A stretch of 48,093 nt of DNA from Candidatus Methylomirabilota bacterium (GCA_046728035.1 JBKPDT010000160.1:1-48093), one strand, 5' to 3'; counted from the first letter of the stretch, positions 14,937 through 30,875 are shown. Notes: generated by a model from the letters alone, not told the origin. Made by a program: numbers and translations.

Positions 14937-15823
14937 GCGGCAACGCGAACACCACCGACTTGACCGCCGCCCCCGCCGTCTCGGGAGCGGCCGGCGGTCG
15001 GGAGTGGCTGCTCCTGGGCATACCGTTCGCGGCGGCGCTCGTGCTCTACGCGCCGCTGCTCCCCGGCCTCGCCGCCGAGTGGACCGAGTTCCCGAGCCTC
15101 TCGCACGGCTTCGCCATCCCCGTGATCGCCGCCTACCTGGCTTGGACGCGGCGGAACCGACTTCGCGAGACGCCGATCCGGCCCTCCGTCTGGGGCCTGC
15201 CCGTGCTCGTCCTCGGCCTGGGCGCACTCGTGGTGGGGACGCTCGGCGACGAGTCGTTCGTGGCTCGCATCTCGCTGCCCGTGATCCTGTTGGGGCTCAC
15301 CCTCTTCCTGGCCGGCTGGCGGGTCCTGGCGCAGGTGTGGCTGGCCATCGCGTACCTTGCGCTGATGGTCCCCCTGCCCTATTCCACGCTCAAGCAGATC
15401 ACCTACCGCTCGCGGCTCTTCGACGCGGAGGTCTCGGCGTGGGCCCTCGGCGTGCTGGGGGTCCCCGTGCACCAGGATGGCGTCATACTCCATCTGCCGA
15501 ACATCGACCTCGAGGTGGCCGACGCCTGCAGCAGCATCCCCGCGATCGCCGCCCTCCTCTCGCTGGGGGTGGCCTATGCGTTCGTGAGCGGGCGCCCGCG
15601 CGCAGTACAGGTGTTGCTGGTCGCGGCCACGCTGCCGCTGGCCATCACCGCCAACATCATCCGTATCACGAGCGTGTCGTGGCTGGCCTATCAGGTCGGC
15701 CCCTGGACCCTGCAGACGAGCTACCACATGTTCAACGGGACGGTGAACTTCATGTTCACCTTCCTCCTCCTGCTTGCGCTCGACGCCACGCTGGGTAAGG
15801 TCGTGGCGCGGTGGCGGTCATGA
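14933..15823 (+). CDS. Exosortase (EpsH/Xrt family transpeptidase), subtype not assignable by eye
   Basis: ATG 14933 overlaps the upstream TGA (ATGA). It is polytopic and carries the signature residues 'SLSHGFAIP', Cys in 'EVADACSSIPAI', Arg in 'TANIIRITS' and His in 'SYHMFNG'. Confidence 0.85.
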   Translation: MSGNANTTDLTAAPAVSGAAGGREWLLLGIPFAAALVLYAPLLPGLAAEWTEFPSLSHGFAIPVIAAYLAWTRRNRLRETPIRPSVWGLPVLVLGLGALVVGTLGDESFVARISLPVILLGLTLFLAGWRVLAQVWLAIAYLALMVPLPYSTLKQITYRSRLFDAEVSAWALGVLGVPVHQDGVILHLPNIDLEVADACSSIPAIAALLSLGVAYAFVSGRPRAVQVLLVAATLPLAITANIIRITSVSWLAYQVGPWTLQTSYHMFNGTVNFMFTFLLLLALDATLGKVVARWRS

Positions 15824-16467
15824 GCCGCCAGGGCCGGTTCTTCCTCGTCGCAATGGTGCTGCTGGTCACGGCGGGCGCGGCGCTCGCCCTCCCGCGGGGC
15901 GCCCGTGATGTGCCGCTCTTGGCCCCGCTCGAGTCCCTCCCCACCACGCTCGGCGCCTGGCGGCCCGCGGAGCCGGCCGCCGACGAGATACTCCCGCGCG
16001 ACCCGCGGGCGGCCGAGAGTCTGGCGCGCGGGTACACGGACGGAACGCGCACGGCATGGGTCGCCGTCGGCTTCTATCCGAATCAGACCGAAGGCCAGCG
16101 GCCCGCGACGGGAAGGCTAGTCTTCCCCAGCAGCGGCTGGACGGACCTGAGCGAAGAGACGGTCTCGATCCCCGCGTCCGGCGCGGGCGCCTCCGCCCTG
16201 CCCGCGAACCTGGTGCGAGTCCGACGAGGCGACCGGCGCGTCGCGATTCTCTACTGGTACCATCTCCCGGGCGGGACGGTCGGGAGCGATCATGTCTACC
16301 GGGCGAGGCTCCTGTGGAACCGGCTCGCTCACCGCCGGGCCGACGGCGCGCTCGTGCGCGTCGCCATGCCCCTGCCGGCCGACCTGAGCCCGGCGGCGGT
16401 GGTCGCCGAGCAGGCCGAGTTCCTTCGGGTCTTTCTGCCCGAGCTCTCGCGGAGTCTCCCGCGCTAG
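15820..16467 (+). CDS. epsI: EpsI-family exosortase-associated protein
   Basis: ATG 15820 overlaps the upstream TGA (ATGA); GTG 15811 is an alternative start. Has the N-terminal anchor 'GRFFLVAMVLLVTAGAALAL', then 'LPTTLGAWRP', as in EpsI proteins. Confidence 0.7.
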   Translation: MSRQGRFFLVAMVLLVTAGAALALPRGARDVPLLAPLESLPTTLGAWRPAEPAADEILPRDPRAAESLARGYTDGTRTAWVAVGFYPNQTEGQRPATGRLVFPSSGWTDLSEETVSIPASGAGASALPANLVRVRRGDRRVAILYWYHLPGGTVGSDHVYRARLLWNRLAHRRADGALVRVAMPLPADLSPAAVVAEQAEFLRVFLPELSRSLPR

Positions 16468-16493: not shown

Positions 16494-17858
16494 ATGAGCA
16501 AGCCAAAAGTGATGGTGGTGGATGACGACGAGGGCATCCGGACACAGCTGAAGTACGCCCTTCAGGACGAGTACACGGTGACCCTGGCGGAGGACCGTCC
16601 TCAGGCCCTGGCCCTCCTTCAGGAAGTGCAGCCCGCCGTGGTCAGCCTCGATCTCGGATTGCCGCCCGAGCCCGACGGCGCCGAGGAGGGGTTGAAGACC
16701 CTGGACGAGATCCTCCAGGCGGCGCCGCTCACCAAGGTCATCGTCGTCACCGGCAACAACGACCGCGCCAACGCGCTGCGCGCCATGCAGCTCGGCGCCT
16801 TCGACTACCACCTGAAGCCCATCAACCTTCCAGAGTACAAGGTCGTCGTCCGTCGCGCCGCCTTCCTCAGCGACCTCTCGCGGGAGAGCGAGGCGGCCGC
16901 CCGCACGGACGAGCAGGCCGTTCGCTTCGAGGAGATCATCGGCAAGACCACGCGCATGCGCGAGATCTTCTCGCTGGTCCAGCGCGTGGCCAAGACCGAC
17001 GCCACGGTGCTCATCGAGGGGGAGAGCGGCACGGGCAAGGAGCTGATCGCGCGGGCCATCCACCACCGGAGCACCCGGCGCGACGGCCCGTTCGTCGCCA
17101 TCAACTGCGGGGCGATCCCGGAGACGCTCCTCGAATCCGAGCTGTTCGGCCACGAGCGGGGCGCCTTCACGGGGGCCCATGTCCAGCGCAAGGGCAAGTT
17201 CGAGATGGCCGAGCGGGGCACCCTCTTCCTCGATGAGATCGGAGAGCTCCCGTTGACCCTGCAGGTGAAGATTCTGCGCTTTCTGCAGGAGCGCACGGTG
17301 GAGCGGATCGGCGGCCGCCAGCCGATCGCGGTGGACCTGCGAATCATCGCCGCGACCAACCGCGACTTGAAGGCGCATCTCGAGCGGGGTCTCTTCCGCG
17401 AGGATCTCTACTATCGGCTCTCGGTGGTGCGGGTGGAGGTCCCGCCGCTGCGGGAGCGGGCCGAGGACGTCGTGATTCTCGCCAACGCGTTCCTGAGCCG
17501 CGCGGTCAAGGAGCAGCGGCGATCCGTGCGATTCGGGCCCCGCGCGCTCCAGTCCCTGCTCGCCTATGCCTGGCCGGGTAATGTCCGGGAGCTCGAGAAC
17601 CGGGTGAGCCGGGCCGTCATCATGACCAAGGGCCGGATCATCGAGCCCGCCGACCTGGACCTTGCCGCGGTGGACGCGACCGCCGAGCAGGGGTCGCTGC
17701 GGGAGACTCGCCAGCGGGTGGAGCGGCAGACCCTCGTCGAGGTGCTCAGCCGCAACCGGGGCAACGTCAGCCAGGCCGCGCGCGAGCTGCGGATCAGCCG
17801 GCCGACCCTCCACGGGCTGCTCGACAAGCACGAGATCAACGCCAAAGATTTCCGCTGA
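16494..17858 (+). CDS. prsR: PEP-CTERM-box sigma-54-dependent response regulator PrsR
   Basis: The RBS GAGGAG (16481-16486) lies 7 nt before the ATG. Has REC 'KVMVVDDDEGIR...VVSLDLGLPP', AAA+ 'GESGTGKE', the sigma-54 contact loop 'GAFTGA', and the Fis-type HTH 'NVSQAARELRISRPTLHGLL'. Confidence 0.85.
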   Translation: MSKPKVMVVDDDEGIRTQLKYALQDEYTVTLAEDRPQALALLQEVQPAVVSLDLGLPPEPDGAEEGLKTLDEILQAAPLTKVIVVTGNNDRANALRAMQLGAFDYHLKPINLPEYKVVVRRAAFLSDLSRESEAAARTDEQAVRFEEIIGKTTRMREIFSLVQRVAKTDATVLIEGESGTGKELIARAIHHRSTRRDGPFVAINCGAIPETLLESELFGHERGAFTGAHVQRKGKFEMAERGTLFLDEIGELPLTLQVKILRFLQERTVERIGGRQPIAVDLRIIAATNRDLKAHLERGLFREDLYYRLSVVRVEVPPLRERAEDVVILANAFLSRAVKEQRRSVRFGPRALQSLLAYAWPGNVRELENRVSRAVIMTKGRIIEPADLDLAAVDATAEQGSLRETRQRVERQTLVEVLSRNRGNVSQAARELRISRPTLHGLLDKHEINAKDFR

Positions 17859-17898: not shown

Positions 17899-19137
17899 CT
17901 ACGGGCTGATCGGAAGGGGGCCGGTAGGCCGCTCGACGGCGCCCGCCGTCGGCGGGACGCGACGCGGCGCCCCACTCAGGTCCTCGATGGGCATCCACGG
18001 CTCGACCGCGGAGACCCCGGCCTGCGGCAAGGGGCTCCCCGGCCCCGGCGAGAAGTCGTAGGCGAAGGGATTCTCGAAGCAGACCACGACGCCGCAGTCC
18101 ACGTTGCCCGCCAGGCGCAGGTACCCCTGGGCCGGGGGGAACGGCGCGACGCCGATGGGGGCGTGGGCGGCGTTGTTCACCACGACGCCGTCGAGGGGGC
18201 CGCGCTCGGGCGCCACGATGCCTCCGCCGGCGTTTCCGTAGGCGGTGTTGTGGACGACGATGATCCCGCGGAGCAGTCCGCGCTTGGCGTAGTCCTCGAG
18301 GGCGATACCCGCCTCGCGATTGCCGACGACCACGTTGTTGCGCACGATCACCGGCCCACCGCCAATGACGATGCCGGACGAGCGCTGCGACCCCACCACG
18401 ACGTTGCGCTCGACCACCGAGACGCGGTCGGGCATCCGGGCGCCGTAAACCATGATGCCGGGGCCCTTGGTGTCCACGATCACGTTGTCACGGATGACGC
18501 CCACCGAGTTGAGCTTGACCTGTAGCCCGTAGCCGATCTCGGGGGCGGGCGCGCGGATCCCGCGGATGTGATTGCCCTCCACCAGGAGGTCCGTGACCTC
18601 ACACGTCCGGCCCTCGTGACACCCGAAGTACATGCCCGTCGCCTCCGAGGCGACGATGGTGTTCCGTCGGACGGTGAGTCCCCGGATCGACACGTGCGTC
18701 GCCGCGACGGCGATGCCGCCCAGCCCCTCGAACCGACAGTCCTCGATCGTGATGCCCGCCCGCGAGTGGATCCGGAACCCGTCCACCGCCCGCTGGGTCG
18801 GGCCCAGGTCGAGCCCGCGGAAGGTCACATGGTCGGCGCGCACCGAGAAGACATTGTTGTCCCGCTCGCCATAGACGATGCGCGGCCGGATCTCGGGGAT
18901 CTTCGCGCGAACGACCGACGGCGCCCCCGGCCGCCCCCCGTAATGGACGGTACAGCCCCCCCGATACTCTCCCGGTCGGAGCAGCAGCTCGGCGCCGGGG
19001 GGAAGGGCGTTGATCTCGACGCAGAGGTCCGCCTCGGGCCCGATCTCGTGCGGCTCGGCGGGCGGCTGAGCGTGCGCCGCGGATGCCGCCAGGACGAGTC
19101 CCGTCATCGCCAGCCACGCCAGCCGCGAGGGCGTCAT
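17899..19137 (-). CDS. Secreted right-handed parallel beta-helix repeat protein (pectin-lyase fold; possible glycan lyase, hydrolase or epimerase)
   Basis: Has the signal peptide 'MTPSRLAWLAMTGLVLAASAAHAQP'. Has stacked PbH1-like repeats 'VEGNHIRG', 'IRDNVIVDT', 'VERNVVVGS', 'VRNNVVVGN', 'VHNTAYGN'. The ATG overlaps the stop of the upstream gene (ATGA, 19134-19137). Confidence 0.65.
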   Translation of the reverse strand: MTPSRLAWLAMTGLVLAASAAHAQPPAEPHEIGPEADLCVEINALPPGAELLLRPGEYRGGCTVHYGGRPGAPSVVRAKIPEIRPRIVYGERDNNVFSVRADHVTFRGLDLGPTQRAVDGFRIHSRAGITIEDCRFEGLGGIAVAATHVSIRGLTVRRNTIVASEATGMYFGCHEGRTCEVTDLLVEGNHIRGIRAPAPEIGYGLQVKLNSVGVIRDNVIVDTKGPGIMVYGARMPDRVSVVERNVVVGSQRSSGIVIGGGPVIVRNNVVVGNREAGIALEDYAKRGLLRGIIVVHNTAYGNAGGGIVAPERGPLDGVVVNNAAHAPIGVAPFPPAQGYLRLAGNVDCGVVVCFENPFAYDFSPGPGSPLPQAGVSAVEPWMPIEDLSGAPRRVPPTAGAVERPTGPLPISP

Positions 19138-21056
19138 TCGGCTCGCCCGGTCACCGCGTGCGGTCGCGCGACCAGGTCGCCGAGCCGGACGATGGCCGTC
19201 TCGTAAGCCCCTGTCATCCTGGCTCCCTCGTCCGCGGTGAAGGGCGCCAGGACGGCGTCGTGGGCGGCGCGCGCGTCTCCCTCTCGCCTCACGCCGACCT
19301 TGACCCGGCGGAGCTCATCCGTCTGGAATGCCTCGATGATCGATCGCATCCCCCGATGTCCGCCGTCGCTGCCGCGCATCCGCGTGCGCACCGTCCCCAA
19401 GGGCAAGTCGAGATCGTCGTAGACGACAATGCATTGCGCGTGATCGAAGCCCAGGCGTCTGGCGAGTCGCGAAAGAACGGGGCCGGAGTGATTCACGAAG
19501 GTCATGGGCTTGACGAGGCATACCACCTCACCCTTCCACACCGTCCGCGCCACCTGGGCGTCGGCCGACTGGTCCCATGTCGCGCCGAGGCCGGCGGCGA
19601 GGCGGTCCAGGATCGCGTGACCGACATTGTGTGGAGTCCCCTGGTAGTTCTCACCCGGATTGCCGAGGCCCACGACCACGTGCGCCGGCGCCGACTCCCG
19701 GCTCCCTTCCACCACCACCGGCTCGACGGGCTCGCGAGCCGGCGTTGCCGAAGAGCTCCCATCGGAGGGAATCGTGAGGAGGGAACACGAATCGCAAAAT
19801 CGGTTCCTTCCGCAGTTCGACTGCCAGCATGCCACTCCGCGCGTCCGATCGAGAATGATCCGATAGAGATGATCGGCGATGTTCGAGCCCTTGAGCAGGA
19901 CGAGATCGCCGGGGCGCAAAAACCCTTTGAAGAAGTCGGAGGCGGCCTTGACGGTGCCGATAGCTCGAATGCGCTCGTCCCCCGCGTGCGTCTTGGCACG
20001 CAACGCCGCAGAGGCGCGCGGGCCTACGAAACAGACCAGGTCCGCGGACAGGAGCGCTCGTCGCGCCATGGCGACGTAGATGGCCCCAGCGTCTCCCATC
20101 GTGTCGGCAATGGTGCCGATGACCACCACCTTGCGTGGCGCCTCCGCCTCCCGCATGAAATCGAGTGCCGGCGGGATGGTGTGGACCGAGGCCTTCCAGT
20201 CGTCGCGGATGAAGGTCACGCCATCGGGCAGGGTGACCGGGCTCATGCGACCCGGATAGGGAGGAACCTCGCTCAGGGCCCGCGCGGCGGCATCGAGAGG
20301 AACGCCAAGCGCGAGGCCGACCGCCACGGCGGCGAGCGCCGAAGGCACCCAGTGGCTCCCACAAAGCTGGGTCTGAACGGGGACGCGCTGCTCCTCATGA
20401 GCCAGCGTGAAGGCGAGCCGCCCGGGCCAGGCCGCGGAGATCGACTCGGCGCGGACGTCCGCGTGCGCTTGTACCCCGAAGGTCAGGACGCGACCGCGGA
20501 AGTCCTTCCCCATCGCGAGGACGCGGGAGTCGTCGGCATTGAGGACGGCGACGCCGTCGGAGGGCAACGCGTCGATGAGCTTCCGCTTCTCGGCGGCGAT
20601 ACCCTCGGTCGAGCCATATGCGCTGTAGTGATCGGTCCCGATGTTCGTGACGACGCCGATTTTCGGCCGAAGGAGGGCGAGCGGTCGATCCATGGTCCCC
20701 GGAGCGGGAGCGCCCACCTCCACTACCGCGAACCGATCTCCCTTTCGCACCGTGCAGATCGTGCGCGCGATGTCGGGCAGCTCGTTGGCGGCGCCGCTCT
20801 TGCGCCCGGGCATCCGCGCGGAAAGGACCTGGGCGACGAAATTCTTGGTGCTGGTCTTGCCCGCGCTGCCGGTGACGCCGATGAAGACGACCGATGAGTA
20901 TCTTGACCGGTGACGACCCGCCCAGCGGACGAGGAATCGCATCCACGCCGGTTGGACGAGCCGCGTGTGGATCGCTTCGAGAGGCCATCGCGGATCCGCC
21001 CGGCGGAACGCCTGAGTGAGCCACGCACGGCCGCGATCGACCCCGAAGCGCATCAC
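19134..21056 (-). CDS. Fusion protein: MurF-like Mur-ligase domain + Cys-rich linker + peptidyl-tRNA hydrolase (Pth) domain
   Basis: A single 640-aa ORF with no internal stop. Mur ligase part: 'VVFIGVTGSAGKTSTKNF', 'VVTNIGTDHYSAYGS', 'LLKGSN'. Linker: 'CWQSNCGRNRFCDSC'. Pth part: 'VVVGLGNPGENYQGTPHNVGH', 'TFVNHSG', 'VVYDDLDLPLG', 'GSDGGHRGMRS'. Confidence 0.7.
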   Translation of the reverse strand: MMRFGVDRGRAWLTQAFRRADPRWPLEAIHTRLVQPAWMRFLVRWAGRHRSRYSSVVFIGVTGSAGKTSTKNFVAQVLSARMPGRKSGAANELPDIARTICTVRKGDRFAVVEVGAPAPGTMDRPLALLRPKIGVVTNIGTDHYSAYGSTEGIAAEKRKLIDALPSDGVAVLNADDSRVLAMGKDFRGRVLTFGVQAHADVRAESISAAWPGRLAFTLAHEEQRVPVQTQLCGSHWVPSALAAVAVGLALGVPLDAAARALSEVPPYPGRMSPVTLPDGVTFIRDDWKASVHTIPPALDFMREAEAPRKVVVIGTIADTMGDAGAIYVAMARRALLSADLVCFVGPRASAALRAKTHAGDERIRAIGTVKAASDFFKGFLRPGDLVLLKGSNIADHLYRIILDRTRGVACWQSNCGRNRFCDSCSLLTIPSDGSSSATPAREPVEPVVVEGSRESAPAHVVVGLGNPGENYQGTPHNVGHAILDRLAAGLGATWDQSADAQVARTVWKGEVVCLVKPMTFVNHSGPVLSRLARRLGFDHAQCIVVYDDLDLPLGTVRTRMRGSDGGHRGMRSIIEAFQTDELRRVKVGVRREGDARAAHDAVLAPFTADEGARMTGAYETAIVRLGDLVARPHAVTGRAE

Positions 21057-21165: not shown

Positions 21166-21864
21166 CTAGGCGCTTCCGCTGGCGGCGTGTTCCACGATTT
21201 GCGCATACAAGGCGAACTCGACCTTGGACGCCTGCACGATCGCCTCGTAGTCGTCCTCGCGGCGTACATACGAATTGATGAGGTCCCGCACTTCATTCAT
21301 GTGACCCTGGTCGGCGGCGCCGTGCCTGGCGAGGTAGGTCACCGCCGAGTCCGGGACGCCGAGCATGCCCTTGATGTTTCCCGCCAGCTGGGTCGCGAAG
21401 AGCTGGCTCAACCCTTCGATGACGTATGTGTCCCCGAGTATCCCCATCGGGTTCTCGTGGCCAGCAGTGTAATACATGTACGCGACCAGACAGTCGCAGG
21501 GGACCGACGGTTTGGAGGTTTCGAGGCGCGAAATATCGTACTTCATCGCCTTCAAGTCATCCGCGATCCAGCGGTGGTGACCGTACTCCTCGACGGCGTG
21601 TTCGAGAAGCCACTGACGGATTTCCTCGTCACGAGTACTCACCCGCGTCGCGGCGAGCGCGTACACCTTCGAGCCTTCGCGCACATGGTAGTAAGAGTCG
21701 ACGAGAAACCTCGTGTAGATGCGTCCGATCTCCGCGGCGTCGCCGGCACTGGGCGGTGCGCTGTCACCAGGATCCGTCACCAGTAGGTTGACAAGGGGGA
21801 TCGCCATGAATCGATCCCGCTCGACCTTCGTGGCGCTCTGAAGCCGCTCGTACGTTGTCGCCAT
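21166..21864 (-). CDS. Heme-oxygenase-like di-iron (iron-containing redox enzyme / HDO family) protein
   Basis: ATG 21864 has a GGAGG RBS 8 nt upstream, so the GTG at 21879 is less likely. Helical protein with candidate metal ligands 'DSYYHVREG', 'AVEEYGHHRW' (ExxH), 'YVIEGLSQ' and 'AADQGHMNE' (DxxH). Its GC content is visibly lower than in neighbouring genes. Confidence 0.65.
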   Translation of the reverse strand: MATTYERLQSATKVERDRFMAIPLVNLLVTDPGDSAPPSAGDAAEIGRIYTRFLVDSYYHVREGSKVYALAATRVSTRDEEIRQWLLEHAVEEYGHHRWIADDLKAMKYDISRLETSKPSVPCDCLVAYMYYTAGHENPMGILGDTYVIEGLSQLFATQLAGNIKGMLGVPDSAVTYLARHGAADQGHMNEVRDLINSYVRREDDYEAIVQASKVEFALYAQIVEHAASGSA

Positions 21865-22296
21865 ACCGATGACCTCCACCGTTGAGGTTGATACTGACCG
21901 TGGAATTCGAACGGCGCGACCGACACGCGATCGAGCGTCATCCGTACCCCGGATCGGCCCTCCACCGGTCGGCGCGACGCTCGAGCCACGCCAGGACGGC
22001 AGCGGCTCCGCGTCGTAGGCTGCCGCTGATCACTCGGACCTTCATCAGTGGCCTCTGCCAATATAGCAGGCCCAGTGAGCACAACCCAAAGCCAATTTTC
22101 TGTGTAACCACGCGTCAATGCTGAAACAGTAATGGAGTCAAGAGTTCGACATGCAGGTAAATTGGGCGTCACGCCTGTCCGGGCAACATCTAGGGAGATC
22201 GTGCAACCCCGCGGCCGAATTGTGAGGATCGCTCTTGCGCGCGTGGCCGTCGCGGAGCGAGAATGGTCCACTTCTCGAACGCATGGAGGCGATCAA

Positions 22297-23316
22297 ATGG
22301 CCCGAATCGTCGCGAGTGTGTTCCTGGTCATGGTGTGCCTCGTACCGGGCGTCACGGGGGCACACCCCTTCACGTCGCTGGTCGTCTTCGGCGATAGCTT
22401 GTCAGACTCCGGCCGAGCTTATGCTCTCAGTGAAGGGTTCGAACCCCCGTCACCGCCGTACGCGCAGCGGTTCACCAATGGCCCGGTGGCAGTGGAGTAC
22501 CTGGCCTCGGCGCTCGGCTTGCCGTTGCTCCCGGCCAGCACGCCTGGTGGGACGAACTACGCCGTAGGCGGCGCTACCACCGGCACCAAGAACGTGAGCT
22601 GGGAGACCGACATCCCGCCGGGGATCCAGTCGATCGCCGCGTTCCAGCACACGGGAATCTCGGTTCAGGTCAACGAGTTCCTGAGCAGTGGGCCGTCCGT
22701 CGATCTGGCCAGCGCTCTCTTTTTCGTTTGGGGAGGGCCGAACGACATCGTCCTCGCCCGATTGACGGGTGGCGACATCGCCGCCGCCGCCGCCGCGGCG
22801 GTGACCAACCTCGCGGGAGCGGTCGAAGCGCTCGCACTCGAAGGGGGCCAGCACTTCCTCGTGCCGAACATGGTGGATCTGGGACAGACGCCGGAGTTCA
22901 TCGGCACCGAGCTGCAGGGACCACTGCGTCTGCTCAGTCAGGAGTTCAACGCGGCTCTGGCCGAGGCGCTGGCGCAGCTGGAGACCGGACTGGAGGCGGC
23001 GGGCCTTCCCGTGGACATCACCGTCTTCGACACCTTCGGCATGTTCGATACCGTCCTCAACGATCCTGGGGCCTTCGGATTCACGAACACGACGGAGGGC
23101 TGTGTGGACAACCTCGAGGCCTTTCTCGCCGGCTGTCCCGGATACCTTTTCTTCGACTTCACGCACCCCACGACCGCCGCCCACGAGCTGCTCGGACTGG
23201 GCTTCCGGGCGGTTGTCCCGTCATCCGTCCCGTCACCGCCGGCGGGCCTGCTCCTCGTGATGGGTGCCGGGCTGGTCGCGCTGATCGGCCTTCGCGCTCG
23301 GCGCAGCGGGGTGTGA
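22297..23316 (+). CDS. SGNH/GDSL esterase-lipase with C-terminal PEP-CTERM sorting signal (exosortase substrate)
   Basis: The RBS GGAGG (22285-22289) lies 7 nt before the ATG. Has the signal peptide 'MARIVASVFLVMVCLVPGVTGA', block I 'VVFGDSLSDSG', block III 'VWGGPND' and block V 'FFDFTHPT'. The C-terminus 'VPSPPAGLLLVMGAGLVALIGLRARRSGV' is a VPxP motif plus TM helix plus Arg-rich tail. Confidence 0.8.
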   Translation: MARIVASVFLVMVCLVPGVTGAHPFTSLVVFGDSLSDSGRAYALSEGFEPPSPPYAQRFTNGPVAVEYLASALGLPLLPASTPGGTNYAVGGATTGTKNVSWETDIPPGIQSIAAFQHTGISVQVNEFLSSGPSVDLASALFFVWGGPNDIVLARLTGGDIAAAAAAAVTNLAGAVEALALEGGQHFLVPNMVDLGQTPEFIGTELQGPLRLLSQEFNAALAEALAQLETGLEAAGLPVDITVFDTFGMFDTVLNDPGAFGFTNTTEGCVDNLEAFLAGCPGYLFFDFTHPTTAAHELLGLGFRAVVPSSVPSPPAGLLLVMGAGLVALIGLRARRSGV

Positions 23317-23343: not shown

Positions 23344-24138
23344 TCAACCGCGAGATGGAACGAAGAACTGGAAGACGTCCGGCCGGCTCCCCATCACGAA
23401 TTCCTCGAGCTGGCGGATGCTGGCGTAGTACGGGATGACCTCGCCGTAATAGCTCATTGGTTCGCCGACTTGCCGGAGCCCCAGACCGAACTTCGACAGC
23501 ATGCGCTGAAGGCTACTCTCCATGGCCGCGACCCAGTACTCGAGCCCCATGTTCACGCTCTCCACGTACATCTCCTTGAAGAGGCCGAAGAGGATCAGCG
23601 GGTACTGACTCCGGCGGTAGGTCGCCTCGGCGCGCGCCTGGGCGTCCTTTTCCGGGTCTCCGAGCTCCTGGCCGTAGAGGCCGTCATTGGCGCGGCGCCG
23701 GTAGCTCCTGGCGAGGATCAAGCGCGAGATCTCGGCGGTCTTGTCGCGCGGTAGCCGATGATAGTCCGCGGAGAGGGTTCCCGCGTGCTCCTCTAGAGGA
23801 AAGCCCAGACGGGAGTCTCGCACCAGGCGCAGCGTCGCCACCATCTCCTGCCGCTCATTGGTCGCGGCGAAATGGATCGAGTAGGCGTCGTACTGGTCCG
23901 TCTCGCGCTCGTTGGGATAGCGAGCCGCGTCGAGATACTTGCACTCGAGGCAGTACACGGCGTAGCGGAGCTGCTGCACACTGTCCCAGAGGCCATTGGT
24001 CGCCGCCAGTCGCCTGAAGTCGAAATACCGTCGCGGAAGGCCGCTTCCAGGTTCCGCGGATGGCGTGGATCCGCCGCGGATCTGCGGGACGATTCGACTG
24101 CCCGCGGCCTCGGGAGCGCGGTCTCGTATCGTTCCCAT
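23344..24138 (-). CDS. PEP-CTERM/exosortase-associated acyltransferase (FeeM/LuxI-like N-acyl amino acid synthase family)
   Basis: Has 'LRYAVYCLECKYLDAARYPNERETDQYDAYSIHFAA', 'ATLRLVRDS', 'AEISRLIL' and 'YWVAAMESSLQRMLSKFG', the GNAT-like autoinducer-synthase/FeeM pattern. The start lies 1 nt after the HlyD gene stop. Confidence 0.7.
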   Translation of the reverse strand: MGTIRDRAPEAAGSRIVPQIRGGSTPSAEPGSGLPRRYFDFRRLAATNGLWDSVQQLRYAVYCLECKYLDAARYPNERETDQYDAYSIHFAATNERQEMVATLRLVRDSRLGFPLEEHAGTLSADYHRLPRDKTAEISRLILARSYRRRANDGLYGQELGDPEKDAQARAEATYRRSQYPLILFGLFKEMYVESVNMGLEYWVAAMESSLQRMLSKFGLGLRQVGEPMSYYGEVIPYYASIRQLEEFVMGSRPDVFQFFVPSRG

Positions 24139-24139
24139 T

Positions 24140-25450
24140 TCAGCGACCCCGCGTCGACACGACGATACGATCGCCTTCCTTGAGTCCGCTCAGGATCTCC
24201 ACGTTCTCGTCGTCCCGGGAGGCGAGCCGGATGACCCGGGGACCGCCGTTCCTGCCTTCGACGCGGACCGTCGCCTCGCGGGCCCCCATGGGCACCAACC
24301 GCCTGGGCATGACGAGGACCTTTTCCTTGTGCGCGACGAGGATGCGCACGTCCACCGTCATGCCTAGCTTCAGCTCGTCCGCGCCCTCGGTCACCTCGAT
24401 CTTGGTCTCCAGGACCTTCATGTCCTGGATCTTGGCAGGGTCTTCGGGATGGACCTTGCGCTTCCCCACCGCTTGACCGATCTCGTAGATCTTGCCGGGG
24501 AAGACCCGCCCTGGATAGGCGTCGGCGGTGACCTCGGCCTTCTGGCCGACCGCGAGCTTGCCGACGTCCGTCTCGTCCACCTCGGCCTTCACGATGATTT
24601 TCTGGAGATCGCCCAGGACCATGAGGGGCATGCTGACGTCCACCGCCTCGCCCGGCTCCACCAGCTTCCGGGTGACCTTGCCGTCGAGTGTCGCCTCGAC
24701 CACGGTGGAGCCCAGCGCCGCCCGCGCCATATCGAGCTGGGCCCGAGCCTGCTGGACATGGCTTTCCGCGCCGCGCAGCTCGGCCTCGGCCTCTTGCACC
24801 TGAGCCCAGGCCGCCGCCACCGTCTCCGCCTTGGCGCCGGCGAGGAGCAGATTCAAGGCTTCCTGAGAGGCCCTGACCCGGGCGCGCCACACTTCGGAAT
24901 TGCTCTCCTCGGCGTCGTACTGGGCCCGGGCGATGTACCCGCCGTCGAGCAGGCGCTTCATGCGGTTCCGTTCCACTTCCGAGAAGTGCTGCTTTTGCCG
25001 CGCCTCCGCCAGCTCGGCGCGTGCGCGCTCGATCTCCTCCGGGCGCGCGCCGCTCCTGGTCTCCGCCCACCGGGCGCGGACACTCTCGAGCGCGCGAGCG
25101 GCCCGGCGCACGTCCGCCAGCGCGGTGCGGACGCGGGCCTCGGACATCCGTACGCCGGCGGCGGGCTCGGCGTCGTCGAAGCGGATGACGACCTGGCCGC
25201 GCTCGACGAGGTCGCCCTCCTTGACGAGGACCTCGCGGATCCGGCCGGGAATCTTGTTGGCGAGGGTCACCTCGGTGAAGGGCTCGATCCGCCCGATGGC
25301 CGCCACCGTCTGGCGGATATTGCCCACCCGGATCACCGCCGAGATGTCGCCCCGGCCGCGCCGCCATTCGCTGTAGCCGAAGGCCACCGCGCCCAGCGCC
25401 ACCGCCAGGAGCACCGCCACGAGGACGACGCGCTTGACGATGGGCATCAC
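24140..25450 (-). CDS. HlyD/MacA-family periplasmic adaptor (membrane fusion protein)
   Basis: Has the N-terminal anchor 'VKRVVLVAVLLAVALGAVAF', a lipoyl-like 'GRIREVLVKEGDLVERGQVV', a long coiled coil, and a beta-barrel 'GMTVDVRILV'. GTG 25450 (GTGA overlap) or ATG 25447 is the start. Confidence 0.8.
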   Translation of the reverse strand: MMPIVKRVVLVAVLLAVALGAVAFGYSEWRRGRGDISAVIRVGNIRQTVAAIGRIEPFTEVTLANKIPGRIREVLVKEGDLVERGQVVIRFDDAEPAAGVRMSEARVRTALADVRRAARALESVRARWAETRSGARPEEIERARAELAEARQKQHFSEVERNRMKRLLDGGYIARAQYDAEESNSEVWRARVRASQEALNLLLAGAKAETVAAAWAQVQEAEAELRGAESHVQQARAQLDMARAALGSTVVEATLDGKVTRKLVEPGEAVDVSMPLMVLGDLQKIIVKAEVDETDVGKLAVGQKAEVTADAYPGRVFPGKIYEIGQAVGKRKVHPEDPAKIQDMKVLETKIEVTEGADELKLGMTVDVRILVAHKEKVLVMPRRLVPMGAREATVRVEGRNGGPRVIRLASRDDENVEILSGLKEGDRIVVSTRGR

Positions 25451-26121
25451 GCCACCAACCGCCCGTCCTCGATGCGGACGCTCCGGTCGATATAAGGCAT
25501 GACGCGATGATCGTGAGTCACGATAATCACGGTGCGGCCATCCGAGCGCGTCACGGCATGGAGGAGCTTCATCACCTGTTCTCCATTCTTCGCGTCCAGG
25601 TTGGCGGTGGGCTCGTCGGCGAGGATGAGGGGCGGATCGCCGGCGAGGGCGCGCGCGATCGACACCCGCTGGCGTTCGCCCCCCGACATGTCGCGGGGCA
25701 GAAAGTCGGCGCGCTGGCTCAGCCCCACGAGGTCGAGCAGACGCCGCGCCTCGCTATGCCGCGTCCGGCGCTCGATGCCCTTCAACTGGAGGACCACCTC
25801 GACATTCTCGGCGGCGGAGAGCGCGGCGAAGAGATTGAAGCTCTGGAAGATGAAGCCCACGTACCGGCGGCGCACCCAGGGCAGCTGCGTTTCATCGAGG
25901 TCGGACACGCGTTCCCCATGCATGGTGATGCTGCCGGAGGTTGGGCGGAGTATGCATCCCAGCATGGACAGGAGGGTGGTCTTGCCGCTCCCCGAGGGCC
26001 CGAGGATGGCGACCACCTCGCCGGCGCGCGCGGTGAGCGTCACGTCCTGCACGGCGGCCACCTGGAACGCCCCTTCCTGGTAGACCTTGGTTAGCTGCCC
26101 CGCCTCGAGCGCGGTGCTCAC
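25447..26121 (-). CDS. ABC transporter ATP-binding protein (MacB/LolD-like)
   Basis: GTG 26121 overlaps the permease stop (GTGA). Has Walker A 'GPSGSGKTT', Q-loop 'FIFQSFNL', signature 'MSGGERQRVSIARAL', Walker B 'LILADEPT' and H-loop 'VTHD'. Confidence 0.9.
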   Translation of the reverse strand: MSTALEAGQLTKVYQEGAFQVAAVQDVTLTARAGEVVAILGPSGSGKTTLLSMLGCILRPTSGSITMHGERVSDLDETQLPWVRRRYVGFIFQSFNLFAALSAAENVEVVLQLKGIERRTRHSEARRLLDLVGLSQRADFLPRDMSGGERQRVSIARALAGDPPLILADEPTANLDAKNGEQVMKLLHAVTRSDGRTVIIVTHDHRVMPYIDRSVRIEDGRLVA

Positions 26122-27239
26122 GAGCGGAAGACCACCAGAGGGTCCACACTCAGCGCCTTGCGGACCGACACCACCGAGGCGGTGGCGCACATGGCGACGG
26201 TGAGGCCGAACACGGCGACCATCAACCCGAACGGGATCACGAGGATCGTCCCCGTCGCGCCGAGGAGACGCACCGAAAGGAGAGTGAGAGCGAGCCCGAT
26301 CGCGTACCCGATCAGCGCGTTGATGAGGGCCTGCTTGAGGATGATCAGATAGACGTCGCGGTTGGTAGCGCCGATCGCCTTGAGTGTCCCGAACTCCCGC
26401 AGGTGCTCGATGGTGGCACTGTAGATCGTTTGACTCACGATGACCACCCCCACGATGACGGCCATGAGAGCGGTGAGCCCGAAGCCGACCCCGATCCCCG
26501 TCTCCCAGGTCCAGTAGAGTCTCGTCTTCCACGAGTACTGGTCCCGGGTGTACACGTCCACGTCGCGGATTTCCCGGAGCCGCGCCGCCACCTCTTGCGG
26601 ATCGGAGCCAGGCGTGACGCGCACCACGATGAAGGCCGTCCGGTCTCGCGCGAAGGGGTCCAGGATCTGGGCGGTGCGGTACGACGTGAACACGTACGGG
26701 GCCGTCGTCAGGCCGCGCACCCCCTGGCTGATTCCGGCCACCCGCACCCGTTGCTCGTTGATCTCCACCTGGTCACCCACGCGAAGGACGCCGAGCTTTG
26801 GATAGGCCGACTCATCCACGATGATGGTCTTGCTGGCCTTCATCGACTGGAAGTCGCCGACGAGGAGACGCCAGGGACCGCCGACACCGGTCTCCGGGTT
26901 GAACCCGACCAGCGCGATATTCTCCTGGCCGCCATCCTTCCGTCGCATGTGCCCCCAGACGAGCAGGAGGGTGTCGGCCCACACGACTCCGGGCGTTTGT
27001 CGGACCTTGTTCAGCTTGCGTTCGGTGAAAGGCACCGCGAAGTCGAAGTTGGATGAGTTCTTCGAGGTCACCCAGATGTCGGCCAGGGTATTGTCGATGA
27101 TGATGGAGGCGTTCTCCATGAAGCCCAGGTAGATGCCGAACTGCGAAAAGATCAGAACGACCGAGAACGTGACCCCCACCAAGGTAATGATGAACCGCGT
27201 TCGATCGTGGAAGAGGTTTTTACGGGCGATGTCGACCAT
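26118..27239 (-). CDS. ABC transporter permease, FtsX/MacB type
   Basis: ATG 27239 ('MVDIARKNLFHDRTRFIITLVGVTFSVVLI'). Has TM1, a large periplasmic domain and a C-terminal 3-TM FtsX bundle ('TLKAIGATNRDVYLIILKQALINALIG'). The track ORF 26118-30506 continues upstream only as an Arg/Gly/Pro-rich artefact. Confidence 0.85.
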   Translation of the reverse strand: MVDIARKNLFHDRTRFIITLVGVTFSVVLIFSQFGIYLGFMENASIIIDNTLADIWVTSKNSSNFDFAVPFTERKLNKVRQTPGVVWADTLLLVWGHMRRKDGGQENIALVGFNPETGVGGPWRLLVGDFQSMKASKTIIVDESAYPKLGVLRVGDQVEINEQRVRVAGISQGVRGLTTAPYVFTSYRTAQILDPFARDRTAFIVVRVTPGSDPQEVAARLREIRDVDVYTRDQYSWKTRLYWTWETGIGVGFGLTALMAVIVGVVIVSQTIYSATIEHLREFGTLKAIGATNRDVYLIILKQALINALIGYAIGLALTLLSVRLLGATGTILVIPFGLMVAVFGLTVAMCATASVVSVRKALSVDPLVVFRS

Positions 27240-27265
27240 CTGGAGTCCCGAAGGCCGGCGCGGGC

Positions 27266-30200
27266 CTAACCGCCCAGCTCCTTGATGCGGTCGGCGATCT
27301 TCTCCGACTGAGCGAGCTTGGGATCGAGTTGCGCCGCCCGCCGGAGCGAGGACACTGCGTCGTTCTTCTTGCCAAGCTTCGAATACGTCATGCCGAGGTG
27401 ATACTGGACCTGCGCGTTGTTGGGGGCTCGCTCGAGCGCGCGATTGAGCGCCTTCTCCGCCTCGACGTAGGAGCCTCGCCGGTAGTGAACCCAGCCCAGG
27501 GTGTCGGCCACCTCGTACGACCGCGGCGCCAACTGGTCCGCCTTCGCGACCAACGTCAAGGCCTCGTCCGGCCGATTCTTTGCCTCCAGCAGGATCCAGG
27601 CCAGGTTGTTCAGGGTGACTACGTCGTTCGCGTTCAGCGCCAGCACCTTGCGGTACGACTCGATCGCGCGATCTGTCTGCCCCTGAGCCTCCAGCGCCTG
27701 GGCGATGCCGCGATGAGCACCGGGCAGATCCGGACTGATGCGGACGGCCGCCGAGAACGCGTCTCCGGCGCCCCGGTAGTCCTTCCGCGCGAGAAGCACC
27801 GCCCCCTTGAGCATGACGGGCTGGGGGCTCTTCGGGAACGCCTTCTCCAGCTCTTCCGCGATCCGCGCCGCGTCGGCAAGCCTGCCCAGCTGGGCGTAGA
27901 GGCTCCCCACCTCGAACTTGACGTCGGGCAGCGCCGGGTTGACGCGGAGCGCGGCCTCGAGGTGCCGGAGCCCTTCCTCGCGCTGCCCCTGGCTGATCAG
28001 ATAGCGCCCGAGCCCGGCGTTGGCCTCCATGCTCTTCGGATTCCCGCGCAGGGCCGCCCGCAGATAGACCGCCGCGTCGTCGGCCTTCCCCTGGCGCAGC
28101 CGGATGCGGGCCATCTGGAGATTCGCCTCGAGGTGAGTCGGAGCCTGGTCGAGGATGGCCTTCAGATGCGACTCCGCCCCCGCCACGTCGCCGGAGTTCA
28201 GGAGCGCGATCGCGAGCGCCTCCCGAAGGGCGGCGCTCTTCGGAGCCTTCTCCACTGCCGCGCGGAGCGACGCGATGCGCTTCCCCAGCTCGGCTGGATC
28301 CGGCTTCTGCCCGGACAGGGCGGCGAGGTCCCGCTTGGCCGCGGCGAGCCCGGGATTCAGCTTGAGCGCCTCGCGGTAGGCCGCCTGCGCCTCGGGCACC
28401 CGCCCCAGGGTGGCATAGCTCTGGCCGAGCAGGTAGTGGGCGGTGGCGTCCTTGGGGGCGGCACGGACGAACGCGGTCAGCTCCTTGACAGCGGAGTGCC
28501 CGTCGCGCTTGCCGAGGTACGCGCGTGCGCGGATGAGCGCGGCCCCCGTGAGCTCCGGACTCTGGGTCAGGATCTGCGTCGCGCGCGCGAGGGCATCGTC
28601 GTATCGGCCGGTGCGGAGGTAAAGCTCGGCGAGCTCCAGGGCCAGCGCGGGTTGCCCCGGCGCGACCTTCAGCGAGCCTTCGACGGTCGCGATGGCTTGC
28701 TCGTACCGTCCCGAACGCTCGGCGAGGCCGGTCTGGAGCAGCACCGCCGTGGGATGATCGGGGCGATCCTTCAGCACCGCCTGGAGGTGACCGACCGCCT
28801 CCTCGTCTTTGCCCTGGATCAGCGCGACGCGGGCGAGCCCCAGGCGCGGCTCCGGCGCCTTCGGGGTCAGCTTGAGCGCCTGGTGGTAGACGTCCTTCGC
28901 CTTCTCGAACTGTCGATCCAGGATGAAGAGCGTCGCGAGCATCGACTGAAAGCCGGAGACCGTGGGCTCCGCCTTGGCGGTGGCCTCCGCGAACTGGATG
29001 GCCTCCTTGATCTTCTTCTGCTTCACGAGCGCGGCGATCTTGGCGCGCGCCGCCGCCACCGATTTCGGATCCGCCTTCACCGCCTCGTCGAATTCCTTGA
29101 TCGCGCCCGCGAGGTCGTCCTCGGCGGCCCGAAGCCGGCCCATCGCGACGTGGGCGGCGGCAAAGGTCGCGTCGACTTCCGCCGCCTTCGCGTAGTGCTC
29201 GTGCGCGGCCTTCGCATTCCCTTGCTTGGCGCGAATCTGCCCCATCAGCAGGTAGGCCTGGGGCGACCGCGGGTCGAGCGCCGCGGCGGCTCCGGCGGAC
29301 TTGAAGGCATCGTCGAGCCGGCCCGTCACGAAAAGCGCCCGGCCCCTCTCCAGGTGGAACAGGGGGACTTTCTCGAGCGGCTTGGCCATGCCGTCGAGGA
29401 GGGCGAGCGACTCCCGGACGCGCCCCGCCCGGGAGTAGGCCTGGGCCAGATAGAACTGCGCGGCGCCGTCGCGAGGCTCCTGCCTGCGCAGCTCCTCGAG
29501 ATGCGTGATCGCGAGCTGGGGGCGATTGCCAGCGAGGTAGGCGCGGGCGAGGAGGAACCGGGCGGGGCGGTAGTTGGGCGCGCGCTCGACGATCGCGACC
29601 AGCAGAGCGCTGGCATTGGCCGGCTGGCCTGCCTGCAGGTAGTAGCTGGACAGCGCGAGGATCAGCCGCGGGGTGCGCGCGCGCACCTCGACCGACTCGA
29701 GGATCTTGATGGCTGCGGCCATCTGACCTTGCCCCGCGGCGGCCGCGGCGAGTCCGAGCGGAATCTCGCTGTTGGCGGGCTGAACGCCCTTGGCCTGGCT
29801 GAAGACCTTCTCCGCCTCCGCGAACTCGCGCCGCTGGAGATGGAACTTGCCGAGGCCGATCAGGCTCCGGACGTCCCTGGGGTTCTCCTTGACGGCCGCC
29901 CGGTACGCCTCTTCCGCCGCCGCCGTCTTCCCGAGCCGCGTCAGCGCCTGAGCGCGGAGCGGCGCGGTCTCCCCCGGAATGCTCTGCCCAGCCTGGTTGA
30001 CGCGGTCCAGGATCGCGAGCGCCTCCTCGGCCTTGCCCTCGCCCAACAGGGCGGCGGCCCGGATATGCAGGCCGACCGCGTTCTGCGGCTCGCGCGACAG
30101 GATGAGCGCGGCTTGCTTCTCGGCGTCCGCGAACAGTCCTCCCTCGACGAAGGCTCGTCCGAGGTCGCTCGCAATCGGGAGGGAGTCCGGCGCGCCCTTC

Positions 30201-30490
30201 TGCGCGCGGCTGAGCTCGCGGATGGCGTCTCCGTACCAGGCCTTCGCGGCGTAGGCGCGCCCCAGCGCGTGGAGCGCCGGCCCGTAGTCCTTGTCGATCT
30301 GCAGCGCGTTCCGCAGCTCGATGATCGCCTCGTTCGGCTTGCCGTCCGTGATGTAGCTCTCGGCGCGCTCCACCGCTTTCTGCTTCTTGGCCTCCGGGCT
30401 CTGGGTGCACGCGGCGCTTACCAGCGCGAGGGCGACCAGGAGGACCGCGACCAAACGGCTGGAGGAAAATGCGCCGGACTTCACGCGCAT
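27266..30490 (-). CDS. prsT: PEP-CTERM system TPR-repeat lipoprotein PrsT
   Basis: ATG 30490 ('MRVKSGAFSSSRLVAVLLVALALVSAAC', a lipoprotein-type signal). More than 1000 aa of back-to-back 34-residue TPR units ('AL..LG.AY...G....AI..Y..AL.L.P'). Confidence 0.75.
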   Translation of the reverse strand: MRVKSGAFSSSRLVAVLLVALALVSAACTQSPEAKKQKAVERAESYITDGKPNEAIIELRNALQIDKDYGPALHALGRAYAAKAWYGDAIRELSRAQKGAPDSLPIASDLGRAFVEGGLFADAEKQAALILSREPQNAVGLHIRAAALLGEGKAEEALAILDRVNQAGQSIPGETAPLRAQALTRLGKTAAAEEAYRAAVKENPRDVRSLIGLGKFHLQRREFAEAEKVFSQAKGVQPANSEIPLGLAAAAAGQGQMAAAIKILESVEVRARTPRLILALSSYYLQAGQPANASALLVAIVERAPNYRPARFLLARAYLAGNRPQLAITHLEELRRQEPRDGAAQFYLAQAYSRAGRVRESLALLDGMAKPLEKVPLFHLERGRALFVTGRLDDAFKSAGAAAALDPRSPQAYLLMGQIRAKQGNAKAAHEHYAKAAEVDATFAAAHVAMGRLRAAEDDLAGAIKEFDEAVKADPKSVAAARAKIAALVKQKKIKEAIQFAEATAKAEPTVSGFQSMLATLFILDRQFEKAKDVYHQALKLTPKAPEPRLGLARVALIQGKDEEAVGHLQAVLKDRPDHPTAVLLQTGLAERSGRYEQAIATVEGSLKVAPGQPALALELAELYLRTGRYDDALARATQILTQSPELTGAALIRARAYLGKRDGHSAVKELTAFVRAAPKDATAHYLLGQSYATLGRVPEAQAAYREALKLNPGLAAAKRDLAALSGQKPDPAELGKRIASLRAAVEKAPKSAALREALAIALLNSGDVAGAESHLKAILDQAPTHLEANLQMARIRLRQGKADDAAVYLRAALRGNPKSMEANAGLGRYLISQGQREEGLRHLEAALRVNPALPDVKFEVGSLYAQLGRLADAARIAEELEKAFPKSPQPVMLKGAVLLARKDYRGAGDAFSAAVRISPDLPGAHRGIAQALEAQGQTDRAIESYRKVLALNANDVVTLNNLAWILLEAKNRPDEALTLVAKADQLAPRSYEVADTLGWVHYRRGSYVEAEKALNRALERAPNNAQVQYHLGMTYSKLGKKNDAVSSLRRAAQLDPKLAQSEKIADRIKELGG

Positions 30491-30671
30491 GAGCACCTGT
30501 CCACAAGAGGTGGGCACAAAGAAAACATTATCACGAGATGATGTTATAGCGCGCGGGCGCTGGCGGGGCCGGACCTGCCTATTCCATGCAAATCTTGCGT
30601 CATTAGCCCATTTCCGGCGATGATCGGCGGGTCGGCGGCCCCGAACTCGACGGGGCCCGGCAGACCCCGCC

Positions 30672-30875
30672 ATGACCAGCGCGGACAACGGGAGCAGGAT
30701 CAACCTCATCATGAGTGGGGGCGGGGTGCGCCTGTCCGCCTACATGGGCGCGCTGGCCGCCTTCCGCATCCAGGCGAACCGCGTGCAGACGCTCCCGATG
30801 AACCTGAGCCGCGCTGACAAGGAGTACCCGGACGCCTCCGGCCCGCCCCCGTCCCCGGAGACCACTGAGACCTGA
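30672..30875 (+). pseudogene. Possible remnant of a patatin-like phospholipase N-terminus
   Basis: Only 'INLIMSGGGVRLSAYMGALAAF' resembles the patatin oxyanion GGGxR/KG segment. The ORF then runs into low-complexity sequence and stops, and no GxSxG follows. Weak. Confidence 0.2.

Follow-up and report, generated by a model that had tools for sequence, protein, structure and literature searches.

Gene organization of the operon

The window, meaning the whole 48,093-nt stretch of a Candidatus Rokubacteria/Methylomirabilota genome analysed here and to which all coordinates refer, carries a PEP-CTERM/exosortase locus whose right-hand edge is formed by a five-gene operon on the minus strand (23344-30490). 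Read from the sequence, the operon begins with the gene of the lipoprotein PrsT, continues with those of an FtsX/MacB-type permease, an ATP-binding cassette (ABC) ATPase and an HlyD/MacA-type adaptor, and ends with that of a TIGR03694 N-acyl amino acid synthase, hereafter NAS (Table 1). We found that the genes are closely packed: a 26-nt gap (27240-27265) separates PrsT from the permease; the permease and ATPase genes share a GTGA overlap (26118-26121), with the GTG start of the ATPase overlapping the permease stop codon; a second GTGA overlap (25447-25450) joins the ATPase to the adaptor; and a single nucleotide (24139) lies between the adaptor and NAS. These junctions are all present as an earlier note on this DNA had described them, and the gene identities that it proposed were upheld by the NCBIfam and Pfam hidden Markov model (HMM) searches given below. 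In the JGI gene call the adaptor starts instead at the ATG at 25447, giving a 1-nt overlap with the ATPase gene (TGATG); with either start, GTG or ATG, the two genes are predicted to be translationally coupled. Between the 3' end of the operon and the stop codon of the GDSL lipase gene, which converges on it, lie 27 nt.

Terminator-like signals within the five-gene block did not exceed the shuffle expectation in a consensus scan, and the scan for sigma-70 promoters and terminators gave nothing above chance. We infer that a promoter lies in the intergenic region of lower G+C content upstream of PrsT. About 100 nt upstream of PrsT there is a sigma-54-like site (TGACGCAAGATTTGCA, 30587-30602), which is weak, having two mismatches and lacking the GG of the -24 element; the number of matches to the sigma-54 pattern across the window was below the shuffle mean, not above chance, and the site was not used. 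Regulation of the operon by PrsR is possible.

In soil runs labelled RNA-Seq, short scattered contigs were found on NAS, the adaptor, the permease/ATPase junction and PrsT, most of them 90-95% identical, and none bridged the adaptor/NAS junction. These contigs weakly suggest that related operons are expressed in soil, and a single transcript is unproven by them. Read mapping also gave a depth peak of more than 50-fold at 25486-25739, over conserved ABC ATPase motifs. We rejected this peak as a sign of operon expression and attribute it to cross-mapping from unrelated ABC genes.

NAS belongs to TIGR03694 and has a FeeM/LuxI-type fold

HMM searches showed that NAS scores 186.1 bits against TIGR03694 (cutoff 111.95, E 6.7e-55), which is the family that the earlier note had named for it. 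Pfam matches were to Acetyltransf_5 and FeeM, the latter at 29.2 bits against 27. Exosortase, EpsI, PrsK, PrsR and PrsT genes all lie within 11 kb, the exosortase/PEP-CTERM setting expected for a TIGR03694 gene. The protein is without a signal peptide, and its N-terminal 34 residues are predicted to be disordered. An AlphaFold2 model was obtained with a predicted local distance difference test score (pLDDT) of 80.1. The top Foldseek matches of this model were LasI, FeeM, BjaI, RpaI and TofI, with E values of about 3e-8 to 5e-8 and target-normalised template modelling (TM) scores of about 0.63 for LasI (1ro5) and FeeM (2g0b). The modelled fold is that of a FeeM/LuxI-type GNAT enzyme, and the earlier description of a FeeM/LuxI-like enzyme was thus borne out.

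Craig, Cherry and Brady reportedly described PEP-CTERM/exosortase-associated N-acyl amino acid synthases in 2011. Later literature citing Craig et al. 2011 ties TIGR03694-type enzymes to N-acyl amino acid synthases. To that extent the statement of the earlier note that the product of this family is unknown is outdated as regards the family chemistry, though not as regards the native product and its role. In Methylomonas LW13 a polysaccharide band was lost when a PEP-CTERM-associated NAS was disrupted, and it came back on complementation (PMC11072679).

A fold shared with LuxI also admits a different function, in which NAS is a LuxI-type autoinducer synthase and a long-chain acyl-homoserine lactone (AHL) is exported by the pump as a quorum signal controlling the matrix. 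The top structural matches include LasI and further AHL synthases, and a PDB search by sequence with the NAS profile returned weak LuxI-type matches and no others, missing FeeM. IMG names the NAS homologues N-acyl amino acid synthase, but labels one or two of them AHL synthetase. However, the Pfam family Autoind_synth (PF00765) did not match NAS at E <= 0.001, while FeeM and TIGR03694 did, and PF00765 is carried by a few distant NAS homologues and no more. The window annotation contains no LuxR-type receptor gene, and the link of the family to N-acyl amino acid synthases in the literature likewise disfavours this function. We rejected AHL synthesis as the main interpretation and regard it as very improbable.

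NAS is present as a single copy in the window, and many other loci carry a tandem pair. Tandem divergent paralogues were seen at L015:9158-10642, L021:5834-7217 and L071:2696-4301 and in the Massilia loci L020 and L023-L025 (L-numbers denote genome loci and P-numbers metagenome contigs). Two copies may differ in their amino-acid or acyl-chain specificities.

PrsT and the three pump proteins

PrsT scored 414 bits against TIGR02917 (NCBIfam, cutoff 312), tetratricopeptide repeat (TPR) families of Pfam match along the entire protein, and its signal peptide ends in a lipobox-like LVSAAC. With a score above the cutoff, a lipoprotein signal, and PrsK and PrsR above their own cutoffs in the same window, the protein is assigned to PrsT. 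In Aquincola, prsT is needed for floc formation (PMC9850573).

The permease has four FtsX transmembrane helices and a MacB periplasmic core domain, matching Pfam MacB_PCD at 64.6 bits and FtsX at 59.3 bits. Among NCBIfam models DevC comes closest, but with 148 bits the permease stays well under the cutoff of 290 and is not an equivalog; its best PDB match is MacB (5nik). For the ATPase, the NCBIfam model of the MacB nucleotide-binding domain gave an E value of 8e-66, the DevA family 218 bits against a cutoff of 296, and Pfam ABC_tran also matched. The adaptor reached 156 bits against TIGR01730 (RND_mfp, cutoff 95) and 124.6 bits against the DevB family, just under its cutoff of 129; its best PDB matches were MacA structures (9qgy, 4dk0 and 5nik, E about 4e-19), and it has a membrane anchor at the N-terminus and a coiled-coil region of about 150 residues. 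A MacB_PCD/FtsX permease, an ABC ATPase and a MacA/HlyD-type adaptor are components of a type VII (MacB-type) ABC tripartite efflux pump, whose outer-membrane duct is a TolC-family protein. Neither gene-by-gene annotation nor phmmer with a TolC query found a TolC-like gene in the 48-kb window, in agreement with the earlier note. In known MacB-type systems tolC is usually unlinked.

Linkage of NAS and type VII pumps recurs within one clade

We surveyed one genome per GTDB species, which gave 61 loci with a NAS relative and up to 10 kb of flank each. The closest homologues came from Candidatus Rokubacteria/Methylomirabilota assemblies. The results showed that a MacB_PCD/FtsX permease lies within 10 kb of NAS in 15 of the 61 loci, with a 51-aa remnant in one more (L010), and that these 16 loci all belong to the 26 in which NAS shares 37% identity or more with that of the window. 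Plain tblastn with the window pump proteins detected the pump in L004-L009, L011 and the Nitrospira locus L021 only. It missed the divergent permeases of Halieaceae and Betaproteobacteria, and an iterated HMM over all open reading frames (ORFs) added the Halieaceae loci L014, L015, L019, L042 and L045, the Betaproteobacterium L027 and the Burkholderiales locus L017. For Haliea salexigens (L015), Pfam and NCBIfam upheld the assignment of the Halieaceae-type permease and ATPase. In a neighbour-joining tree of 80 NAS copies, all linked loci fell in one major clade. Six independent metagenome look-ups were consistent with this distribution: a pump was found beside NAS in P0092, P0086 and P0115 but not on the long contig P0108, and two contigs were too short to judge.

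The co-occurrence that the earlier note had proposed to test therefore recurs within the NAS clade of the window, across several phyla and in varied gene orders (16 of 26 loci, the remnant included), and does not extend to the family as a whole. These data suggest that NAS and the MacB-type pump are functionally coupled, at least as judged from gene neighbourhoods. Our literature search found no report linking PrsT or a PEP-CTERM-associated NAS with a MacB-type pump.

The gene orders fall into several types. The block of PrsT, permease, ATPase, adaptor and, further on, NAS is collinear in six related Rokubacteria genomes (L004-L009), so the operon is not an assembly accident; PrsT is 54-72% identical in these loci and stands directly upstream of the permease. 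In L008 and L009 the adaptor is followed by NAS in the same direction with no intervening gene, and in L004-L007 the two are spaced by 1.4 to 2.7 kb. A gene on the opposite strand parts the adaptor from NAS in L005-L007; in L005 (7259-9787, minus strand) it encodes an 842-aa secreted protein with a long Pro/Thr-rich linker, and L004, L006 and L007 have equivalent gaps. The tight 1-nt adaptor-NAS junction of the window is thus recent or strain-specific.

The pump adjoins NAS but is transcribed away from it in L011, which represents a second Rokubacterial lineage, and P0092 and P0086 also show a divergent pump; in these loci NAS is followed by a patatin-like gene or by a gene for a protein of about 470 aa (see below); P0086 has a second NAS. 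The Nitrospira locus L021 has an operon of a PEP-CTERM protein gene, a DevC-like permease, a DevA-like ATPase, a DevB-like adaptor and a TolC-family gene (TIGR01844, E 1.8e-30), divergent from two NAS genes and the 470-aa gene. The NAS-linked permeases of L011 and L021 are 48-69% identical to that of the window. Haliea salexigens DSM 19537 (L015) has a row of genes on one strand that opens with two copies of NAS and the 470-aa gene, continues with a pair of LolC/E-like permeases, a small ORF and an ATPase, and closes with an AMIN/DUF1302 outer-membrane protein; upstream of this row stands a PEP-CTERM protein gene. The P0115 lineage has NAS, a LolA-like (TP_0789-like) protein, a permease and an ATPase, and a PEP-CTERM protein gene is nearby. 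The common denominator is a NAS of this clade and a type VII ABC system, and the periplasmic and outer-membrane partners vary.

The remnant in L010 consists of the first 51 permease codons only, 90% identical to the window, and a phage terminase-large-subunit-like gene (L010:7435-9564) occupies the place of the missing permease sequence. The pump of this Rokubacterial locus appears to have been destroyed by insertion of a mobile element, with NAS and the gene that follows it intact.

A PaaK-like gene directly follows NAS in 17 genome loci

A divergent PaaK-like (adenylate-forming) protein of about 470 aa is encoded directly after NAS in 17 genome loci of four phyla (L004, L007-L011, L013-L017, L019, L021, L022, L027, L042 and L045; examples are L015:10671-12083, L021:7214-8647 and L010:10692-12116) and in P0086. 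No curated family scored above its cutoff for this protein, and it looks like an undescribed obligate partner of the NAS clade. In most relatives the carboxylate of the N-acyl amino acid may thus be activated and then ligated further. No such gene was found beside NAS in the window, L005 or L006. The sole PaaK-like gene of the window (8407-9786) is distant and not an orthologue of the 470-aa partner, so in the window strain this step is either missing or encoded elsewhere.

Other genes of the PEP-CTERM/exosortase locus

The PrsK, exosortase, EpsI and PrsR genes lie together on the plus strand to the left of the operon (Table 1). The exosortase exceeds the general EpsH cutoff but is below the subtype cutoffs for XrtA (162 against 208) and XrtW (200 against 425). 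Further locus genes encode a methyltransferase, two asparagine-synthase-like amidotransferases, a GT4 glycosyltransferase, a PaaK-like ligase, an ATP-grasp enzyme, a PHP-type hydrolase and a FemAB-like protein; on the minus strand are a beta-helix protein, a MurF-like ligase fused to peptidyl-tRNA hydrolase and a heme-oxygenase-like protein. Beyond PrsT, on the right-hand side of the window, all genes are housekeeping ones (DHODH, RadC, GlmM, diadenylate cyclase, FolP, FtsH, HPRT, ArgS and CobQ).

Table 1. Features of the operon and of the adjoining PEP-CTERM/exosortase locus in the window
Feature	Coordinates	Strand	Remarks
PrsT	27266-30490	-	First operon gene; ATG start
Type VII ABC permease, DevC/MacB-like, 373 aa	26118-27239	-	MacB_PCD and FtsX
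ABC ATPase subunit, DevA/MacB-NBD/LolD-like, 224 aa	25447-26121	-	GTG start
Periplasmic adaptor (membrane fusion protein), MacA/DevB/HlyD-like, 436 aa	24140-25450	-	RND_mfp
PEP-CTERM/exosortase-associated N-acyl amino acid synthase (NAS), 264 aa	23344-24138	-	TIGR03694; last operon gene
Intergenic region upstream of PrsT, about 250 nt, lower G+C	30491-30740	-	Read from sequence
PrsK	12831-14936	+	TIGR02916, 414.7 bits against 300
Exosortase	14933-15823	+	TIGR02602, 163.5 bits against 105.6
EpsI	15820-16467	+	TIGR02914, 85.6 bits against 42.8; separate gene
PrsR	16494-17858	+	TIGR02915, 590.8 bits against 502.6
Secreted GDSL/SGNH lipase-acylhydrolase	22297-23316	+	Pfam Lipase_GDSL, 79.9 bits; closest NCBIfam models PlaA and PlaC

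The GDSL lipase, which converges on NAS across the 27-nt gap, is the sole ORF of the window with a PEP-CTERM-like C-terminal tail (VPSPPAGLLLVMGAGLVALIGLRARR), in which Ser stands in place of Glu (VPSPPAG...RARR). It is a candidate substrate of the exosortase, which may be an undescribed subtype pairing with this Ser-for-Glu sorting motif. The lipase gene is kept beside NAS in L005 only, and whether it belongs with NAS and the pump is uncertain.

The fusion of a MurF-like Mur ligase and a peptidyl-tRNA hydrolase domain (19134-21053, minus strand), the latter domain matching TIGR00447 at 147 bits, is kept in L005, L006 (two tandem copies) and L008. With the FemAB-like protein, the ATP-grasp enzyme, the PaaK-like ligase and the two AsnB-like proteins it makes up an amide-bond set that is unusual for a PEP-CTERM locus and suggests peptide decoration. 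The heme-oxygenase-like protein (21166-21879, minus strand) matches Pfam Haem_oxygenas_2, has no NCBIfam match and is 77% identical in L005. The heme-oxygenase-like superfamily includes diiron oxidases acting on fatty acids and amino acids, and this protein could tailor the lipid.

Proposed synthesis and export of a lipo-amino acid

Taken together, we lean with modest confidence towards an accessory module that makes and exports a lipo-amino acid at the edge of a PEP-CTERM/exosortase exopolysaccharide locus. Judging by family and fold, cytoplasmic NAS would move a long acyl chain onto the amino group of an amino acid, and the donor would most likely be acyl-acyl carrier protein, as in FeeM. 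The amphiphilic product would partition into the inner membrane and reach its outer leaflet, from where the DevC/DevA/DevB-like type VII pump would take it from the periplasmic side. ATP-driven mechanotransmission would then expel it by way of a TolC-family duct whose gene lies at another place in the genome, a step modelled on the MacAB-TolC and DevBCA-HgdD mechanisms and on the TolC gene in the homologous Nitrospira operon. The destination would be the outer membrane, the cell surface or the matrix, and co-transcription of PrsT would tie lipid synthesis and export to the deployment of PEP-CTERM proteins and exopolysaccharide.

MacB-type (type VII) ABC transporters do not transport across the inner membrane and act on substrates that are already periplasmic: ATP hydrolysis drives periplasmic movements that expel these substrates via MacA and TolC (PMC5985334). 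Since such pumps work periplasmically, the one in the window probably lifts the product out of the inner membrane and expels it. The earlier note had suggested that the product is pumped across the envelope together with PrsT, which fits neither this mode of action nor the signal peptide that PrsT itself carries. PrsT is predicted to be a Sec-dependent lipoprotein and not pump cargo, and would be co-expressed with the pump rather than co-exported. Comparative genomics backs the coupling of enzyme and pump in one clade, but not a pump working across the inner membrane or a linkage in most of the family, and the family chemistry is not unknown. Hydrophobic cargo has been reported for related machines. 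DevBCA-TolC exports heterocyst glycolipids (PMC6161253), Pseudomonas lipopeptide gene clusters encode MacAB-like pumps (PMC8788793), LolCDE handles lipoproteins (PMC5985334), and YbbAP-TesA extracts hydrophobic compounds from the inner membrane (PMC12646458).

Several observations weigh against export of a lipo-amino acid. Where NAS is less than 37% identical to that of the window, a type VII permease was found within 10 kb in none of 35 loci. Massilia loci inside the linked NAS clade are without a neighbouring type VII pump, and so is NAS on the long metagenome contig P0108. The survey sample was drawn by two peptide search patterns only, which biases it, and its contigs are often short. Nor can each lineage be counted as a separate data point, since the lineages amount to about five or six independent arrangements. 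The opposite-strand gene between adaptor and NAS in close relatives means that co-transcription of the two is not conserved. In both the window and Nitrospira L021 the pump operon is headed by a gene of the PEP-CTERM system and not by NAS, so the pump could serve the sorting system in some other way. Finally, with a PaaK-like gene after NAS in 17 loci, though not in the window, the N-acyl amino acid of most relatives may be an intermediate and not the exported end product.

Alternatively, the pump and NAS may be neighbours merely as accessories of one PEP-CTERM/exopolysaccharide locus. The pump would then expel other cargo, for example a glycolipid, a peptide of the matrix or the hydrophobic C-terminal remnants that are cleaved off PEP-CTERM proteins, or act in general efflux, and the N-acyl amino acid would stay in the envelope or be processed further, as the PaaK-like ligase suggests. 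The heading of the pump operon by PrsT in the window and by a PEP-CTERM protein gene in Nitrospira, the opposite-strand gene that parts pump from NAS in close relatives, and the lack of a pump at most TIGR03694 loci all agree with such an arrangement; in Proteobacteria, PrsT, PrsK and PrsR are often near NAS with no pump. However, NAS adjoins a type VII ABC system through at least five arrangements, and in Haliea and the P0115 lineage the transporter operon begins with NAS genes, and no PrsT gene intervenes. Locus membership alone is hard to accept as an explanation of both facts, and we consider it unlikely, although it is the alternative to which we give most weight.

A further possibility concerns the sorting reaction itself. 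The NAS product, or a free-amine derivative of it, might be the nucleophile that receives exosortase-cleaved PEP-CTERM proteins, with the type VII system acting like LolCDE. In this form the lipo-amino acid or its derivative would be the membrane acceptor or anchor for exosortase cargo, the type VII machine would extract the lipid or the lipid-linked cargo, and PrsT would be its periplasmic or outer-membrane receiver. In the Haloferax S-layer glycoprotein, archaeosortase-dependent processing is coupled to lipid attachment, which we count in favour of an anchor. Some NAS-linked transporters are LolC/E-like pairs, one operon has a LolA-like (TP_0789-like) gene, and PEP-CTERM protein genes adjoin the NAS and transporter genes in L015, L021, L068 and the window. 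Haft et al. 2006, who defined PEP-CTERM, EpsH, PrsK, PrsR and PrsT, left the nucleophile accepting exosortase cargo unknown (PMC1569441). On the other hand, an N-acyl amino acid has no free alpha-amine, so that acceptors would be limited to Lys/Orn-type products. The MacA-type long-hairpin adaptor of the window and the TolC of Nitrospira also point to an efflux duct, which is no known route for folded lipoproteins. A role of the NAS product as nucleophile is therefore improbable in our estimate, and the wider scheme with PrsT as receiver is a long shot of the same order; if true, it would supply the missing nucleophile of the PEP-CTERM system and its missing trans-envelope route.

Bacteria of soil and sediment and those that form flocs widely carry PEP-CTERM/exosortase systems. 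One NAS clade is repeatedly wired to type VII ABC machines, be it a TolC-dependent pump, Lol-like permease pairs or a LolA-like carrier, which offers a testable idea: that a lipo-amino acid is extracted from the inner membrane and delivered outward. Haliea salexigens DSM 19537 is a cultured carrier of the linkage, unlike the uncultured Rokubacteria. N-acyl amino acids are biosurfactants and bioactive lipids, and a dedicated exporter could aid their production.

Comparison with known systems

The window NAS resembles the TIGR03694 N-acyl amino acid synthases and FeeM in its family score, its GNAT/LuxI-like fold and its location in an exosortase/EpsI/PrsK/PrsR/PrsT locus. It differs from the TIGR03694 synthases in being joined in one operon with PrsT and a tripartite ABC pump, in coming from Methylomirabilota and not from Proteobacteria, and in being a single NAS without the PaaK-like partner of 17 related loci.

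Among exporters, DevBCA-HgdD (TolC) of Anabaena has the same plan, in which the FtsX/MacB_PCD permease is a protein of its own beside an ATPase and a membrane fusion protein; it carries a lipid synthesized in the cell to a layer beyond the outer membrane, and the gene of its TolC partner is not linked to it (PMC6161253). Among NCBIfam models, those of DevC, DevA and DevB come closest or nearly closest to the window pump. All three proteins are under the respective cutoffs (TIGR01185, TIGR02982 and TIGR02971), so they are not DevBCA orthologues. The gene order is C-A-B in the window and not B-C-A, and the presumed cargo is a lipo-amino acid and not a glycolipid.

MacAB-TolC and the MacAB-like exporters of Pseudomonas are likewise type VII systems with a hexameric MacA-type adaptor and periplasmic mechanotransmission, and MacA and MacB are the best PDB matches of the window adaptor and permease. 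The Pseudomonas exporters are encoded beside genes making an acylated peptide (PMC8788793). In MacB the ATPase is fused to the permease, whereas in the window it is a separate gene, and the biosynthetic enzymes of the Pseudomonas clusters are non-ribosomal peptide synthetases, whereas that of the window is a single small acyltransferase.

Likeness to LolCDE-LolA is seen in the NAS-linked LolC/E-like pairs of Haliea and in the lineage that adds a LolA-like protein, and likeness to YbbAP-TesA in the GDSL/SGNH hydrolase gene that adjoins the window operon as tesA adjoins ybbAP. The latter is a likeness of gene position alone, with the GDSL neighbour kept only in L005. Unlike LolCDE and YbbAP, the window pump combines a MacA-type adaptor with just one permease gene, and for this reason it should form a TolC-dependent duct.

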